From positions 515,025 through 579,024 of the forward strand of contig CAYQZQ010000001.1 of the NCBI GenBank assembly GCA_964422035.1: a DNA stretch of 64,000 bases, read 5' to 3'. The position numbers and the translations under genes were made by a program. Below the pieces are notes generated by a model. That model was not told where the DNA came from, searched no databases, and was given only the letters and a program-made list of their open reading frames with translations. The stretch is from an uncultured Pseudomonadales bacterium (GTDB lineage Bacteria; Patescibacteriota; Microgenomatia; UBA1400; Chazhemtobacteraceae). This document shows, piece by piece, positions 4,862 through 26,680 of this stretch. Each line of letters opens with the position of its first letter. Positions within the stretch are counted from its first letter, which is position 1.

Positions 4862-5669
4862 AGAAGCTATTAAGCTTCGCTTCAAAATCAGCAAAGCCAT
4901 TTTGGCTTTTAATACCAAGCAAGCTCTGGCTTATGCATACAACAACTGGGGCGGAATGGCTTCCACGGTTACTTATATGATCACCTACTTGGCATTTTTA
5001 TCGATTATTTATGCCCGAGTGAAGAGCATCGCCGGTTACAGTTATGCCGATATGTTGATGTTCACCCTGGTGGGACAGATAAGTTTTTATACCAATTGGT
5101 TTTGGAGTTTGAACGGGATTCAGCAGATGGTAAGAGATGTTAACTCGGGACGGTTAGATTTGATTTTGAGCAAACCGCTGCCGGCTTTATGGTTTGTAAC
5201 CTTTCAGAAAGCCAATCTACCCAGTATTCTGTTTCAAAGTGTGCCGGCAATGATTCCCTTGTTAGTTTTGATAGCTAAACACGCCAGTTACCTTCCCAGC
5301 TTGAGAGCACTGTTTCTGGCCACTGTTTGTTTTATCTTGGGGGTTATTTTAATCCACTGTTTTACTTTCATCTTGGGACTGACGGTATTTTGGACCGGAC
5401 AGAATAGGGCAATGATTAATTTAGGTTATCAGTTGAGTTATTTTGGCGATACTATACCCTTTGAAGCTTATCCAAAGTCTATTGTTTGGCTGGGTCTGAC
5501 GATTGTACCCTTTTTGGCTCATATTGCTTTAACCAGCTCGTATCTGCTGGGCAAGACGGAATCTTTGAACTATCTGTTGATCGTTTTAGTAGCAGTTATT
5601 ATCTTTTTGGCTGCTAAAATTAGGCTGTGGCGGGTGGCTTTACGTCGCTACGCTTCAGCTTCATCTTAA
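4842..5669 (+). CDS. ABC-2 type transporter permease (second subunit)
   Basis: 275 aa polytopic membrane protein immediately upstream of the ATPase. Confidence 0.5.
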   Translation: MNRWEFKEAIKLRFKISKAILAFNTKQALAYAYNNWGGMASTVTYMITYLAFLSIIYARVKSIAGYSYADMLMFTLVGQISFYTNWFWSLNGIQQMVRDVNSGRLDLILSKPLPALWFVTFQKANLPSILFQSVPAMIPLLVLIAKHASYLPSLRALFLATVCFILGVILIHCFTFILGLTVFWTGQNRAMINLGYQLSYFGDTIPFEAYPKSIVWLGLTIVPFLAHIALTSSYLLGKTESLNYLLIVLVAVIIFLAAKIRLWRVALRRYASASS

Positions 5670-5683
5670 TAAATAAAAAATCT

Positions 5684-6685
5684 ATGTCTAAAATAAATAC
5701 TCTAGCTGTTGAAATCAGTGGACTAACCAAAGAGTACAAGGTACCGGTGAAGGAGAATTTCTTAAAGGATATTTTTGTACCCAACTTTGAATATTTTAGG
5801 GCAGTGACTGATCTATCATTTACCATCCAAGAGGGGGAGTCGGTGGCTTTGTTGGGACCCAACGGGGCGGGCAAGACTACTACTTTGAAGATGTTGACAG
5901 GCCTGCTATATCCCACCAAAGGAAAGATGGAAGTCTTGGGCTATACACCGACTAAACGACGATATTCGTTTCTGCGTCAGATCGCCTTGGTGATGGGGAA
6001 TAAGTCCGGGCTGTCTTGGGATCTTTCAGCCCAGCAGAGCTATGAGTTGTTTAAAACCATCTACCAGATTCCCCGGGAGAAGTATGAACAAACCGTAGAG
6101 GAGTTAACTTCTTTACTGGAGGTTGGAGAGTATCTTAATACTCCGATTAGAAATCTTTCATTGGGCCAGCGGTTAAAGTTTGAGCTTATTGGAGCTATTT
6201 TGCATTCTCCTAAATTGCTTTTTCTAGATGAGCCTACCATTGGACTGGATGTGATCAGTAAACGCAAGATAAGAGATTTTCTAAGATACTTGCATCAAGA
6301 AGAGCAGACGACCATACTCTTAACCTCGCATGAGATAGCCGACATTCAGAAAGTGTCAGACCGGGTGCTGGTGATAAACCAAGGCCAACTGGTTTATGAT
6401 GACTCTTTATCCAAGCTGGAACACTTGCATGAGGACAGAAAGTATTTGTCGGTAACTTTGAAGCAGAAAATAGATGAGGGAGAGCTTGGCAAAGTGGGCA
6501 AGATTGGAAATATTATAAAGTCAAGCGAGTATACCCAGACTATTGAGATTAAAAGAGAGGACCAGTCCAGAGCAGTCTCTTATTTGACAGAGAACTTTGA
6601 AGTAGATGATATTGATATCCAGCCGGTACCCTTGGATGAGATCATTGAGGATTTGTTTATTAAGACCAGAAAATCAATCGATTAA
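5684..6685 (+). CDS. ABC transporter ATP-binding protein (start reassigned to ATG at 5684)
   Basis: Walker A LLGPNGAGKTTTLKML, signature LSLGQRLKFEL, Walker B LLFLDEPTIGLD, H-loop TSHEI. The track ORF from 5627 has a non-conserved leader. Confidence 0.8.
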   Translation: MSKINTLAVEISGLTKEYKVPVKENFLKDIFVPNFEYFRAVTDLSFTIQEGESVALLGPNGAGKTTTLKMLTGLLYPTKGKMEVLGYTPTKRRYSFLRQIALVMGNKSGLSWDLSAQQSYELFKTIYQIPREKYEQTVEELTSLLEVGEYLNTPIRNLSLGQRLKFELIGAILHSPKLLFLDEPTIGLDVISKRKIRDFLRYLHQEEQTTILLTSHEIADIQKVSDRVLVINQGQLVYDDSLSKLEHLHEDRKYLSVTLKQKIDEGELGKVGKIGNIIKSSEYTQTIEIKREDQSRAVSYLTENFEVDDIDIQPVPLDEIIEDLFIKTRKSID

Positions 6686-21754: not shown

Positions 21755-21804
21755 AAGCGCTAAAAAATCAAGCAGAGACTGCTTGATAGTTAAATGACTG
21801 ATAA

Positions 21805-22032: not shown

Positions 22033-22118
22033 AGGTTTGTTTGTACGAGTTAGTATTATAGCAAAGTAAGCTAATTTTGGCCAATTTTCAGGCTGGAGCG
22101 GTTAAATTGATTTGATGA

Positions 22119-22919: not shown

Positions 22920-23474
22920 TTAAGAAAGCTTTTGGACGATGTCCTGGTGAATAGTGTCAATATCAGGACTGCCATTGATTTTAAGAAGTAGATCTTTGTC
23001 TTGATAAAACTTAATTAAAGGCTTGGTTTGTCGATGATATTCTTTTAAGCGGTTTTTGATTATTTGAGGACTGTCGTCTGAGCGGTTTTCCTTTTTTGCT
23101 CGTTTTAAAAGTCTTTGAGTGGCTTCTTGATCAGTGAGGGAAAGAAAAATAACTTTTTTTATCTGGATATCGTTTTGGGTAAAAAACCAGTCCAAATGTT
23201 GGGCTTGAGAAAGATTGCGAGGAGCCCCGTCGAGAATAAAACCCTGAGAAGTAGTGAGGATTTTCTCTTCCATTAACTCCAAAATGGTATCAAAGGGGAC
23301 AAACTCACCTCTGTCCAGATATGATTTAATGGCTTCTGATTTATCGGTGTCTTTTTTGACTTGGTCTCGTAGAAGTTGGCCGGTTGAGATATGTAAGAGA
23401 TTGAATTTTTCAGCTAAAAGTTTGGCTTGGGTGCCCTTACCTGACCCGGGCGGGCCTAGAAAGATTAAATTCAT
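22920..23474 (-). CDS. adk: Adenylate kinase (start at MNLIFLGPPGSGKGT; the track ORF has 5 extra codons)
   Basis: P-loop GPPGSGKGTQ, LID region. Confidence 0.85.
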   Translation of the reverse strand: MNLIFLGPPGSGKGTQAKLLAEKFNLLHISTGQLLRDQVKKDTDKSEAIKSYLDRGEFVPFDTILELMEEKILTTSQGFILDGAPRNLSQAQHLDWFFTQNDIQIKKVIFLSLTDQEATQRLLKRAKKENRSDDSPQIIKNRLKEYHRQTKPLIKFYQDKDLLLKINGSPDIDTIHQDIVQKLS

Positions 23475-23510
23475 AAAGATAGTATACAAGGCGCAAAGAT
23501 AATTTAAAAC

Positions 23511-23570
23511 AAAAAAATCCTCCCTAGGGAAGTAAAATCACGGTGTGTGATTTCCCTGAGGGAGGTTTTT
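23511..23570. terminator. Long nested hairpin flanked by A7 on one side and T5 on the other; candidate bidirectional intrinsic terminator between the small membrane ORFs and adk
   Basis: cctccctagggaa ... ttccctgagggagg arms (13/14 bp) enclosing an inner aatcac/gtgatt hairpin. On the minus strand it is followed by TTTTTTTGTTTT. Confidence 0.55.
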
Positions 23571-23575
23571 GTCCT

Positions 23576-23845
23576 TTATGAAAAAAGCTTGCGGACGACG
23601 GGAACGGTGTCAGTGAGGTAGAAGACGAAAGAGGTAACGACTATGACGGCCCAACTAGTTTGAGAATGACCAGAGGCAAGTAAGTTGGTTATACCAATGT
23701 AAATGGCTGATACTGTTAATGCCAAACGAAGAATCTTTAAGTACCAGCATTTCTGACTGAACAGGAACTGAGGATCATATATTGATATAGCAACATAAGG
23801 GGAAATCAGTAGAATGCTGAAGATGACTGTAGGTGGGAACATCAA
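23576..23845 (-). CDS. Small hydrophobic membrane protein (89 aa, about 3 TM)
   Basis: ORF with strongly hydrophobic segments; overlaps the upstream 65-aa ORF by 4 nt. Confidence 0.4.
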   Translation of the reverse strand: MMFPPTVIFSILLISPYVAISIYDPQFLFSQKCWYLKILRLALTVSAIYIGITNLLASGHSQTSWAVIVVTSFVFYLTDTVPVVRKLFS

Positions 23846-24039
23846 TTTTCTCCTTTGGTAAATTTGGATGAGTTTTTAATCCTGGCGATAAAACAGAGTG
23901 ACAGGCCGATCAGAAAGGGAATAACTACCCAAGTTCCGATCGTGTAACCTGAAAGACTAAAGATGGTAAAAAGGGTAGAGGTGCCAAAGACAAGCGCAAG
24001 TCCTATATCTAACAACATCTTTTCCTCCTTTTGGAACAT
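23842..24039 (-). CDS. Small hydrophobic membrane protein (65 aa, 2 TM)
   Basis: ORF with two TM helices; preceded by a good promoter-like element. Confidence 0.4.
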   Translation of the reverse strand: MFQKEEKMLLDIGLALVFGTSTLFTIFSLSGYTIGTWVVIPFLIGLSLCFIARIKNSSKFTKGEN

Positions 24040-24115
24040 AGACTATCTTTTTGGCTGCTTTTTTCACAAATTAAGGTGCGAAAATAAGGCTAGATACGCT
24101 TATTTGTATGAGAGT

Positions 24116-24144
24116 AATATACTATTATATAGGATATAAGTCAA
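24116..24144 (-). promoter_or_regulatory. Sigma70-like promoter (TTGACT-17nt-TATATT) reading into the small membrane ORFs, in the secY-adk spacer
   Basis: On the minus strand: -35 ttgact (24139-24144), 17-nt spacer, -10 tatatt (24116-24121); about 75 nt upstream of the ATG at 24039. Confidence 0.45.
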
Positions 24145-24190
24145 GTCGTGCTGGAGGCTGGAAAAGATAAATATCAGGAGGGTTTTGTGT

Positions 24191-25471
24191 TTAGAGGAAC
24201 TTGTCGTAATTTCTCATAACCAGCTGGGCCTGGACATCTTTAGTAGTCTCCAGGACTACTGAAACAACGATTAGAAGACCTGTGCCCCCGATGGCTAGTG
24301 ACTGGATGTTGGTGATTTGTTGAGCTAGATTAGGCAGAATGGCAATTAAGCCCAGAAAGACAGCCCCGGCGGCGGTGATGCGGGTAAGGATGTAGGAAAG
24401 ATGTTTGGCGGTGGGTGTACCTGGCCTGACTCCGGGAATAAAACCACCATTTTTCTTTAGTTGTTCAGAGATTTTATCGGGATCAAAAACCACGGCCGTA
24501 TAGAAGAAGGTGAAAGCGACTACCAAAACAAAATAGACACCGTTATATAAGAATGAGTCGGGAGTAAATTGATTAGCAAAAAAGTAACCAAGGTTTGATA
24601 GAGCAGGATTGGCAACAGAGGTAAGAAAATTGCCCAGCATTGATGGAAGAAGCATTAGAGAGACGGCGAAGATGATGGGGATAACTCCTGCTTGATTTAA
24701 GCGCAGCGGTAGGTGACTCATCTGGCCACCGGGGGTGGATTGATTGCGGGAACGACGGGCGTACTGAACGGTAATCTCTCTTTGGGCTTGGGTTATCTTG
24801 ACGACAAAGTAAATGACAGCGATTGCCAGGGCAGCAAAAACCAATAGATTAGTAGTTTGACGAGCTTGAGTGGTGGCAGTTGTCTGAAAGAGCGAGATAG
24901 GTAAGCGACCAACGATGCCGGCGAAGATGATGATGGAGACTCCGTTGCCGATGCCGTACTCGGTGATAAGCTCACCCAGCCAAGTTAAAAGAAGGGTGCC
25001 GGTAGTGAGGGTAACAATAATGGTAATAAGCTGCAAGGGCGAGGAGATAATAGCAATACCCTGGCTTTTTAGGAGAGTGATTAAACCAAAACTTTGAATG
25101 ATAGATAGCGGGATGGTCAGCCAACGAGTATATTGATTGATTTTTTCCTGTCCGTACTGACCTTCTTCACGGAGCTTTTCAAGTTGAGGGATGACCATGG
25201 ACATCATCTGGAGAATAATGGAGGCATTGATGTAGGGATTAACACCCAAAGCCATGATGGAAAGATTAGCCAGGGTACCCCCTGAGAAAAGATCTAACAA
25301 TGAGAGAAATGCAGAGCCGGAGAAAAGTCTTTGCAGAGTAGCGTGATCGATGCCGGGAACAGGTACATGAGCAGCAAAACGAAAGATGGTAAGAATTAGA
25401 AAGGTAACCAGAAGTTGGTTGCGGAGTTTTTTTACTTTGAAAATGTTTTTTAGAGTTGCTATAACACTCAT
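24191..25471 (-). CDS. secY: Preprotein translocase subunit SecY
   Basis: 426 aa, 10 TM. Family match and position after rplO. Confidence 0.9.
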   Translation of the reverse strand: MSVIATLKNIFKVKKLRNQLLVTFLILTIFRFAAHVPVPGIDHATLQRLFSGSAFLSLLDLFSGGTLANLSIMALGVNPYINASIILQMMSMVIPQLEKLREEGQYGQEKINQYTRWLTIPLSIIQSFGLITLLKSQGIAIISSPLQLITIIVTLTTGTLLLTWLGELITEYGIGNGVSIIIFAGIVGRLPISLFQTTATTQARQTTNLLVFAALAIAVIYFVVKITQAQREITVQYARRSRNQSTPGGQMSHLPLRLNQAGVIPIIFAVSLMLLPSMLGNFLTSVANPALSNLGYFFANQFTPDSFLYNGVYFVLVVAFTFFYTAVVFDPDKISEQLKKNGGFIPGVRPGTPTAKHLSYILTRITAAGAVFLGLIAILPNLAQQITNIQSLAIGGTGLLIVVSVVLETTKDVQAQLVMRNYDKFL

Positions 25472-25475
25472 GATG

Positions 25476-25922
25476 TTATTTTACCGTTCCCTCTTGAGCT
25501 TTAACAGCGCTGGCTGCACCTTTGGAGATATTAATCTCGTCGGTGATGGTTAGCTTTTTTTCTAGTTTGCCTCGTTTGAGGATCTTGATGCCACGCTTTT
25601 TAGCTTCTTGGGCACTGAGATTAAACTCCTCAACTAGTTTTTCCACAGTTACTTTAGAGCCGGAACGCAGATTATTAAGCTGTTGAGTGTGAATTAAAAT
25701 TGGGCTTGGTTTTAAGGGCTTGAAACGTCCTTTACCACGAAGCAATGGGATGGCACGAATAAAGGGTAGTTGGCCTCCCTCAAACCACAATGGGATTTTA
25801 GAACGAGATTTTTGTCCTTTCATACCTCTGTTGGTGGTGTGACCACCTTTGCCTGAACCATAGCCGCGGCCTAGTCTTTTTTTCTTGTTTTTGGTGATTT
25901 TGGGTAGATTAGATAGATCCAT
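25476..25922 (-). CDS. rplO: 50S ribosomal protein L15
   Basis: Family match. Directly follows rpsE with no rpmD (L30) gene between. Confidence 0.85.
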   Translation of the reverse strand: MDLSNLPKITKNKKKRLGRGYGSGKGGHTTNRGMKGQKSRSKIPLWFEGGQLPFIRAIPLLRGKGRFKPLKPSPILIHTQQLNNLRSGSKVTVEKLVEEFNLSAQEAKKRGIKILKRGKLEKKLTITDEINISKGAASAVKAQEGTVK

Positions 25923-26680
25923 TATTTTTGAGGAAAGTAATTTCTGATTTCTTCAAGACCTTTTTTGCCGATACCGGAGATGTCTAGTAGTTGTTGATCA
26001 TCCATGTTAGCAATCTTGGAGGTGGTGATTTTAGCATCAGTTAGGGCATTTTCTGTTCTGGTGGAGAGTTGACTGAAGTCTTTGGCGGTTCTTTCTGCCT
26101 TTTTCTCTTCAGTTGGCTTGTCAACTTGTTTTTTAGTCTTTTTGGTTTTTTGGCTAGGCTTTTCTTGTTTTTCGTCTTGATCGATACCGGCTAGTTTTTT
26201 TCGATGAGCATGTTTTTTCTCTAGTTGTTCAATTTTCTCTAGAGCTTTCATGGTAGCAAAAACGTTGGTTAGCTTGTTGTTATTGCCAAGCATTTTGGCG
26301 ACGATGTCTTTAACTCCGGCTACTTCGACTACGGCTCTGACTGAACCACCGGCGATAACACCGGTGCCGGGAGGAGCAGGTTTAAGTAAAACTCTAGCAG
26401 CTGAGAACTCAGCGATTATAGAGTGGGGGATGGTGCCGTCTACCAGTGGTAGGTTGACCAACTTACGGGTAGCTTTACGAGAGGCTTTTTGAATGGCAGA
26501 TTTAACACCAGGTGCCTTGCCTAGACCAACACCGACTCTACCTTTGTGATCACCGAGAACAACGAGGGCAGTAAAACTGATGCGGTTGCCTCCTTTAGTT
26601 TTTTTAGAGACACGACGGATCTGAAGAACTTTTTGATCGAAGCCTTGTTGATTTTGGTTTTGATTTCTGTTGTTAGCCAC
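25922..26680 (-). CDS. rpsE: 30S ribosomal protein S5 fused to a C-terminal Lys-rich linker and an RpoA-alpha-CTD-like HhH domain
   Basis: S5 core ([22 protein letters not shown]...[21 protein letters not shown]), then [15 protein letters not shown]..., then [49 protein letters not shown]. Confidence 0.85.

Follow-up and report, generated by a model that had tools for sequence, protein, structure and literature searches.

Two very small reading frames, apparently coding for membrane proteins, lie in the middle of one of the most conserved gene clusters of bacteria. What are they, and why are they there? The question is raised by a 64,000-nt stretch of contig CAYQZQ010000001.1 (GenBank assembly GCA_964422035.1, positions 515,025 to 579,024), termed here the window, from an uncultured bacterium placed by GTDB in the Microgenomatia. 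On its minus strand, secY and adk are separated by about 700 nt that hold two overlapping open reading frames (ORFs), denoted orfA and orfB, together with a promoter-like element and a predicted terminator. The pair is probably a young, non-essential, clade-restricted accessory cassette, situated at a permissive joint of the ribosomal-protein super-operon of Microgenomates, which belong to the candidate phyla radiation (CPR).

Gene models and evidence of coding

Relatives were found by protein searches. The cassette is known from four lineages comprising six contigs: the window and three further lineages from Logan or ENA assemblies, namely L083 (with L082 and L084), L085, and L086, all of which are covered by the alignments. 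The gene order secY-orfA-orfB-adk is the same in all four. L083, L082, and L085 have a DNA identity of ~88% to the window, and L086 is farther removed as judged by its flanking genes. In L082, L083, and L084, orfA encodes P0002 and orfB encodes P0005, of 92 amino acids (aa); in L086 the corresponding products are P0007 (52 aa) and P0006 (89 aa). In L085, orfA encodes P0003, and orfB carries an in-frame 61-codon (183-nt) deletion that leaves a 31-aa product with a single transmembrane (TM) segment.

The cassette is bounded upstream by secY (24191-25471, minus strand; 426 aa; Pfam SecY, E 1.8e-107) and downstream by adk (22920-23474, minus strand; 184 aa; Pfam ADK, E 9.7e-45). The start of adk is the ATG at 23474 and not the TTG at 23489, in agreement with the gene call on the window’s own contig, and the secY-adk spacer is therefore ~716 nt. 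Both small ORFs described in the sequence-only reading exist, and comparative alignment corrects their lengths from 65 and 89 aa to 58 and 88 aa. The first ATG of the 65-codon orfA frame is ATT in L085; the second ATG, at 24018, and the Shine-Dalgarno (SD) sequence AAGGAGG 5 nt upstream of it are invariant in all lineages, so that orfA (23842-24018, minus strand) encodes 58 aa. Its stop codon TGA (23844-23842) meets the orfB ATG (23842-23840) in the motif TGATG, which means that the overlap noted earlier is real and is exactly 1 nt in all lineages. The orfB frame (23576-23842, minus strand) has a hypervariable core at ~23624-23806 and a conserved C-terminus, Y..DT.P.VRKLFS. Its SD sequence, AAAGGAG (23850-23856, minus strand), is 7 nt before the ATG and inside the conserved TKGE tail of orfA; it reads AAAGGAG in three lineages and AAGGGAG in L085, with an invariant GGAGAA core.

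The pattern of substitution across lineages resembles that of coding sequence. The fractions of variable sites at codon positions 1, 2, and 3 are 0.35, 0.21, and 0.52 in orfA and 0.64, 0.35, and 0.64 in orfB, compared with 0.09, 0.01, and 0.51 in secY and 0.16, 0.05, and 0.54 in adk. The departure from equal variability has a chi-square of ~10.8 in orfA (p ~0.005) and a p of ~1e-4 in orfB, where the conservation of position 2 would fit selection for hydrophobic residues. Start codons, stop codons, SD cores, and the TGATG overlap are invariant in the four lineages, and all indels, at least five events, are multiples of three: L086 has lost 18 nt from the orfA tail, L085 has the 183-nt deletion, and several others fall in orfB. 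OrfA has 62-79% aa identity to its orthologues P0002, P0003, and P0007, and its ratio of nonsynonymous to synonymous divergence (dN/dS) is 0.30-0.53. For orfB the ratio is 0.24-0.62 against its own dS, which is saturated. The orfB core was also compared with neutral simulations that start from the L083 allele, at a divergence of 0.46 (0.49 is observed in the core). The frame stayed open in 8% of runs and was both open and as hydrophobic as observed in 0.4%.

The SD sequences point in the same direction. Of the seven copies of AAGGAGG in the 64-kb window, only the one at orfA stands before the start codon of a free-standing ORF; a second is found ahead of an in-frame GTG within a longer ORF. 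The orfA and orfB SDs are the strongest of a neighbourhood in which most genes are without one: in the segment 20700-27100 a recognisable SD is absent from most genes, namely rpsE, rplO, infA, rpmJ, rpsM, rpsK, rpsD, rpoA, rplQ, and adk. Strong SDs among SD-less neighbours may reflect a foreign origin or a need for independent initiation. A lack of conservation in relatives and of ribosome-binding sites, named in the sequence-only reading as grounds for dropping it, was looked for, and the opposite was found: the ORFs are conserved in four lineages and their SDs are near-perfect. We conclude from these comparisons that orfA and orfB are, in all likelihood, both translated genes.

Predicted structure of the proteins

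Hydropathy analysis, the topology check suggested by the sequence-only reading, bears out the membrane character of both products. Every orfA allele has two hydrophobic segments; full-length orfB alleles have three and the 31-aa L085 product has one, and a hydrophobic stretch at residues 1-22 is shared by all orfB alleles. AlphaFold2 models OrfA, at modest confidence, as a helical hairpin with helices at residues 2-23 and 26-54 (predicted local distance difference test, pLDDT, of 70), and OrfB, at low confidence (pLDDT 61), as three long helices and a short one at residues 24-28. By the positive-inside rule, OrfA would have both termini inside the cell and a four-residue outer loop, SGYT, and OrfB would have its N-terminus outside and its C-terminus inside. 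The L085 deletion removes two helices and would therefore keep the topology of OrfB. Residues Y75, D78, T79, and R84-S88 of OrfB are invariant in the four alleles, and its C-terminus holds no known arrest motif, RAPP-like or other.

Constraint along the locus and divergence of orfB

Constraint was measured, unless stated otherwise, as the fraction of alignment columns invariant in all four lineages. The spacer 3′ of the secY stop (24145-24190, minus strand), which extends to the −35 hexamer of the promoter-like element, provides the local neutral baseline; 10 of its 50 columns (20%) are invariant, and it contains indels. The fraction rises to 66% from the −35 to the −10 hexamer and to 67% in the orfA 5′ leader (24019-24115, minus strand), which includes the orfA SD at 24030-24024. 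For orfA itself it is 57% (63% in three lineages). The orfB gene is uneven, with 31% in its N-terminal 12 codons, 32% in the core (three lineages), and 71-75% in the last 15 codons. The terminator is the most conserved segment of the locus, at 91% (60/66 columns), and the segment from the terminator to the adk ATG has 75%. By this measure, selection acts on both promoter-like elements (that of orfA and the adk-proximal one) as well as on the leader and the terminator.

The two proteins evolve far faster than their neighbours. SecY has 96-97% aa identity to its L083 and L086 orthologues and a dN/dS of 0.02-0.04, and adk has a dN/dS of 0.04-0.11; the dN of the cassette proteins is 5-20 times that of SecY. 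The flanks place L086 as the outgroup, with a secY dS of 0.92-0.96 to L086 against 0.58 between the window and L083. In orfB this order is reversed: the L083 and L086 alleles are 60% identical, and the window allele is 39-40% identical to either, with a dN of 0.48. When the divergence is partitioned among three taxa, the ratio of orfB dN to secY dS is ~1.3 on the window branch (~0.35/~0.27), ~0.45 on the L083 branch, and ~0.2 on the L086 branch. This incongruence would fit diversifying selection, recombination with a divergent allele, or relaxed constraint that keeps an open hydrophobic frame. A diversity-generating retroelement was considered as the source of the variation and rejected, as the differences include indels and are not limited to particular bases. 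The core of orfB turns over almost as fast as neutral DNA while the frame and its hydrophobic helices are kept. The window-branch divergence and the in-frame mini-allele of L085 together show a core that is, on this comparison, dispensable and labile, an N-terminal segment that is kept but variable, and a tail that is conserved.

The 3′ end of orfB (23576-23596, minus strand) reads CGC AAG CTT TTT TCA TAA in all four lineages, synonymous sites included. About half of the third positions elsewhere vary, unlike those of the last five sense codons of orfB. The invariant codons, together with a low dS in orfA, hint at a constraint at the level of the nucleotide sequence.

Promoter-like elements and terminator

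The sigma70-like promoter proposed upstream of orfA is present at 24116-24144 on the minus strand, with TTGACT (24144-24139), a 17-nt spacer, and TATATT (24121-24116), and matches 10 of 12 consensus positions. It is a predicted element, and its hexamers and spacing are conserved in the four lineages: the TTGAC core is found in three of the four, with TTGAAC in L083, the −10 hexamer is TATATT or TAGATT, and the 17-nt spacing is found in all. The leader that follows was examined as a candidate structured RNA and rejected (folding z = −1.7, no compensatory pairs, no Rfam match), and nothing in the whole secY-adk interval rises above noise in Rfam.

The nested hairpin with a U-tract just before adk, also proposed earlier, held up well. 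This predicted intrinsic terminator (23506-23575, minus strand) has GC stem arms at 23565-23559 and 23525-23518, followed by U7 at 23517-23511, and an A-tract precedes it. Its folding energy is −31.7 kcal/mol against −14.8 ± 2.7 for shuffled sequences (z = −6.3; 0 of 200 shuffles as good). The hairpin is unique in the window, and its inner stem is also found by a consensus scan. It shares with other intrinsic terminators a stem rich in GC, a tail of seven U, an A-tract upstream, and a strongly favourable folding energy. It differs from typical ones in that the stem is long and nested (~22 pairs), in that 91% of its columns are invariant though synonymous sites differ at 40-50%, and in its place inside a normally co-transcribed gene cluster.

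Between the terminator and adk is a putative second promoter-like site (23481-23508, minus strand), with TTTAAA (23508-23503), 16 nt, and TATACT (23486-23481), matching 9 of 12 positions. Both hexamers are invariant in the four lineages, with 6 nt between the end of the −10 hexamer and the adk ATG. With no SD and a −10 hexamer so near the ATG, adk might be leaderless; the missing SD is not diagnostic of a leaderless mRNA, as most neighbouring genes are also without one.

The sequence-only reading took a private promoter and terminator to mean a separately regulated unit. A conserved two-gene unit with a terminator is indeed found; its independence of the upstream operon is less certain. A consensus scan predicts no terminator-like site between secY and orfA, and read-through from secY is therefore expected besides any promoter of the cassette’s own. 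Farther downstream, a TG-extended promoter-like site, TTGGCC-18-TATAAT, is found upstream of infA (22055-22084, minus strand), and a 9-bp hairpin with a T-run lies between infA and rpmJ (21767-21787, minus strand). On account of these two elements, the ribosomal cluster may be cut into several transcription units.

Distribution and homology searches

Neither orfA nor orfB was found by tblastn in 80 GTDB-representative relatives having a SecY of the same family. The co-occurrence with secY across the CPR that was suggested as a check is thus limited to four related lineages, with 0/80 among the other relatives. A word-indexed search of 5.8 billion protein clusters and an exhaustive HMMER search of 1.84 billion representatives recovered the clade’s own alleles only, with P0005 and P0006 as the only credible orfB matches. 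P0004, a 478-aa protein with seven matched stretches, consists of low-complexity tandem repeats and was set aside as a spurious hit. Three JGI metagenome contigs that contain a 19-nt terminator arm share just 19-24 nt with the window, carry no Sec or adk genes, and were attributed to chance.

The two proteins match no family in Pfam, NCBIfam, PHROGs, or PADLOC. The best Pfam hits, YohP included, have E values of 0.06-0.4, far below the cut-offs, and the best PHROGs hits (E 0.004-0.02) are to unrelated families of unknown function that differ between alleles. The Sec families, SecE and SecG included, give no hit to either protein at E ≤ 1 in Pfam or NCBIfam; PDB sequence profiles give none at E ≤ 10, and a Foldseek search of the PDB gives none for OrfA. 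No relatives of either are found in viral contigs. Origin by duplication of secY or of another window gene was rejected (best tblastn E elsewhere in the window, 0.06-0.26), and no convincing flanking direct repeats or terminal inverted repeats of a mobile element were found.

The secY-adk junction in relatives

In the window, the minus-strand gene run rpoB, rpoC, fusA, tuf, the S10 and spc ribosomal-protein genes, rplR, rpsE, rplO, and secY is followed, beyond the 700-nt interval, by adk, map, infA, rpmJ, rpsM, rpsK, rpsD, rpoA, and rplQ. The closest SecY proteins among one-per-species genomes are 53-61% identical and come from metagenome-assembled genomes of Gottesman-, Woese-, and Daviesbacteria and other Microgenomates or Patescibacteria, which places the organism in the Microgenomates. 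Many of the closest relatives, among them L002, L004, L007, and L008, are deposited as Gammaproteobacteria or Candidatus Saccharibacteria, yet they group with Microgenomates by SecY and gene order, and the deposited names seem unreliable. An adk-like gene follows secY in 72 relatives, at a median distance of 32 nt; the gap exceeds 150 nt in 11 of them and 300 nt in 5, and five further relatives have no adk within 4 kb of secY. The statement that secY-adk adjacency is among the most conserved in bacteria is thus too strong for this phylum.

The inserts examined at this junction in relatives comprise L33, a GIY-YIG nuclease with another ORF, an antisense HicB-like antitoxin, guanylate-kinase-like and other P-loop kinases, and a PurD-like protein. 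They are mutually unrelated, lineage-specific, and 0.2-1.5 kb long. The secY-adk junction is an insertion hot spot, and the window cassette is one more example of it, with orphan content. It is like the other cargo in its position, its similar size, and its lineage-specificity, and unlike it in having no recognisable family.

Individual relatives illustrate the variety of this region. In L034, a gene for a HicB-like antitoxin (Pfam E 2.2e-12) and a small upstream ORF lie antisense between secY and adk (5555-6042, on the minus strand of that locus). In L024 (5446-6576), L047 (5454-6581), and L048 (5464-6591), adk and a second P-loop kinase-like domain form one fused gene, whose product has ~375 aa, and rpmG (L33) is inserted between secY and the fused gene. 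Many Gottesmanbacteria-type relatives have an extra gene between adk and map, coding for a cytidylate-kinase-like protein of ~230 aa or a P-loop kinase-like protein of ~185 aa; it is found in L002, L003, L006, L009, L014, L025, L028, and L042 (at about 5850-6680) and also in L004, L005, L007, L008, L010, L011, L016, L021, and L036. The window is without it. Upstream of secY, the window’s S5 gene (25922-26680, minus strand) encodes 252 aa with a ~90-residue C-terminal extension, and its L086 orthologue is equally long. The extension ends in a match to the RNA polymerase alpha C-terminal (helix-hairpin-helix) domain (PF03118, E 8e-07, 29.1 bits against a cut-off of 23.8).

Proposed role of the cassette

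Small membrane proteins such as KdpF, AcrZ, CydX, and YohP are known as add-ons to operons. The cassette is like this kind in that its proteins are shorter than 100 aa, have 1-3 TM segments and no catalytic domain, are encoded in one run with larger genes, and belong to a size class often missed by gene callers. It is unlike these examples in having no sequence similarity to them, in being a coupled pair with a promoter-like site and a terminator, in being confined to one CPR clade, and in having one hypervariable partner. The cassette is a new orphan family of a familiar kind, that of small accessory membrane proteins in a permissive operon joint.

As an accessory cassette, it would be transcribed by read-through from secY and from the conserved sigma70-like promoter. 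The TGATG coupling and strong SDs would allow OrfA and OrfB to be made in similar amounts, and the two may sit together in the membrane as a small hetero-oligomer that acts by protein or lipid contacts and not by catalysis. OrfA would be the constrained partner and OrfB the fast-evolving, dispensable one, as is expected of an accessory protein that faces the environment or a conflict, or of a young gene. The terminator would stop most transcription before adk, so that adk and map would rely on the adjacent upstream TTTAAA-16-TATACT site. A split of the S10-spc-alpha super-operon at secY/adk would be the surest consequence of the insertion.

Several points weigh against this account. The near-neutral rate of orfB on the window branch could mean a loss of function there. 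The dS of orfA is 0.27, about half of the 0.58 in the flanks. Only four lineages on six contigs carry the cassette, and the evolutionary rates are based on few substitutions, the window and L083 orfA genes differing by 13 nonsynonymous and 10 synonymous changes. With 16 in 12.5 kb, promoter-like sites do not exceed the 18.6 expected from shuffled sequence, and the activities ascribed to promoter and terminator are predictions. The hetero-oligomer is postulated from the coupling of the genes.

Alternative explanations

The lability of OrfB invites a reading in terms of conflict, in which OrfB forms the conflict interface of a small membrane toxin, a holin-like protein, or an immunity module; the pair could be, for example, an abortive-infection effector, a type I toxin, or an immunity protein against bacteriocins or phage (exclusion). 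Small hydrophobic proteins, a patchy, clade-specific distribution, SDs unusually strong for the surrounding genome, and a hot spot that holds a HicB-like antitoxin in L034 would all suit such a module, as would an orfB divergence that is incongruent with the flanks and near or above neutral on one branch; at 58 aa with two TM segments, OrfA also has the size of a small hydrophobic type I toxin (usually <60 aa). Yet neither PADLOC nor PHROGs gives a match, viral contigs hold no relatives, and a consensus scan, which could miss a weak promoter, finds no plus-strand promoter-like site in 23490-24190 from which an antisense RNA might start. The neighbours are housekeeping genes, with no adjacent endolysin, bacteriocin, or ABC-exporter gene, and the cassette thereby differs from phage holin and lysis cassettes, to whose families it has no similarity. 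A hok-like fold-back, in which the leader (24070-24057) would pair with the orfB 3′ end (23588-23575), was rejected: a 14-nt duplex is no better than chance (5/40 shuffles comparable), and changes in the 5′ arm in L086 are uncompensated, without covariation. A second complementarity, 24053-24039 with 23486-23472, is not nested with this fold-back and was set aside. The toxin or holin-like peptide put forward in the sequence-only reading therefore drew no support from PHROGs, PADLOC, or the antisense-promoter scan, and we regard this class of explanation as doubtful. The position of the cassette suggests instead to some extent a lineage-specific accessory subunit of SecYEG, formed by OrfA or by OrfA and OrfB, similar to SecG or YajC and co-expressed with SecY: it lies directly downstream of secY in four lineages with no predicted terminator between, it encodes small multi-TM proteins, and orfA is under purifying selection. 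Against such a subunit stand its restriction to one narrow clade, with absence from 80 relatives that have the same SecY family, and the lack of a family hit at E up to 1-10 in Pfam, NCBIfam, or the PDB, SecE and SecG included. SecY is 96-97% identical between lineages, where OrfA is 62-79% and OrfB 39-60% identical; the orfB core is deleted in L085, and the junction holds unrelated cargo in relatives. A labile, fast-changing OrfB beside so conserved a SecY does not have the traits of a SecY partner, and the narrow clade, with a dN 5-20 times that of SecY, disfavours the subunit proposed earlier; a SecY-accessory role is unlikely. It is quite unlikely, too, that the ORFs are non-functional and the spacer an old insertion remnant with selection on the terminator and promoters only. 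The family is tiny and orphan, the orfB core is barely above the neutral spacer (32% against 20% invariant), one lineage has deleted most of orfB, and the Logan gene caller skipped orfA on the window’s own contig. These observations are outweighed by the coding pattern of orfA (p ~0.005; dN/dS 0.3-0.5), the invariant SDs, starts, and stops with indels all in multiples of three, and the rarity of an open hydrophobic orfB core in neutral simulation (0.4%).

A further alternative concerns the act of translation and not the protein product. Sec/YidC monitoring substrates comprise SecM, MifM, VemP, ApcA/ApdA/ApdP, and the upstream ORF (uORF) families of Fujiwara et al. 2024 (PMC10987492), and the published search for them called for a uORF directly upstream of a sec or yidC gene, an N-terminal signal peptide or TM segment, a conserved C-terminus, and a spacer of >30 residues (PMC10987492). 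OrfB could, by analogy, be a cis-acting translated leader that makes read-through of the terminator into adk-map-infA depend on membrane insertion or on the state of translation. Like a monitoring substrate, it is small, lies beside a protein-localisation gene, and has a TM segment at its N-terminus, a middle that varies, and a conserved C-terminus near an RNA hairpin, and the full-length alleles show three of the four published features (PMC10987492). Its core is variable or deletable in frame while the N-terminal segment is kept, if weakly conserved (31%); its last five sense codons are invariant even synonymously; and 10 nt separate its stop codon from the GC stem of the exceptionally conserved terminator that follows. 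The defining feature is the one that fails, as orfB has secY before it and is followed by adk, and not by secA, secDF, or yidC. The hairpin is of the terminator type and does not sequester an SD, the peptide has no known arrest motif (RAPP-like or other), and by geometry a terminating ribosome would reach just the first 1-3 nt of the GC stem. The >30-residue spacer is present in the 88-92-aa alleles and lacking in the 31-aa L085 allele, which is too short for its TM segment to exit the ribosome before termination; the conserved tail may also be a mere cytoplasmic anchor. Such a leader is very improbable. Least credible of all is its most specific form, in which OrfB is chiefly a translated sensor, not a membrane protein with a role of its own, and TM insertion, with the behaviour of a ribosome at the VRKLFS-stop, sets how much of the secY operon's transcription passes the terminator to reach adk-map-infA and the alpha operon; if that were true, OrfB would be an attenuator resembling a Sec/YidC monitor, acting on a terminator inside the ribosomal super-operon.

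Significance of the cassette

As an accessory cassette, the secY-adk insert leaves knowledge of the Sec machinery unchanged, and its family is too narrow for general importance. It does provide a natural series on the evolution of small membrane proteins, with one conserved partner, three divergent full-length alleles of the other, and one in-frame mini-allele. Should this account be correct, a permissive joint that receives lineage-specific cargo exists in the CPR, at secY/adk, even within the most conserved gene cluster of bacteria, and such cargo can bring a terminator with it and so force downstream housekeeping genes onto a new promoter.

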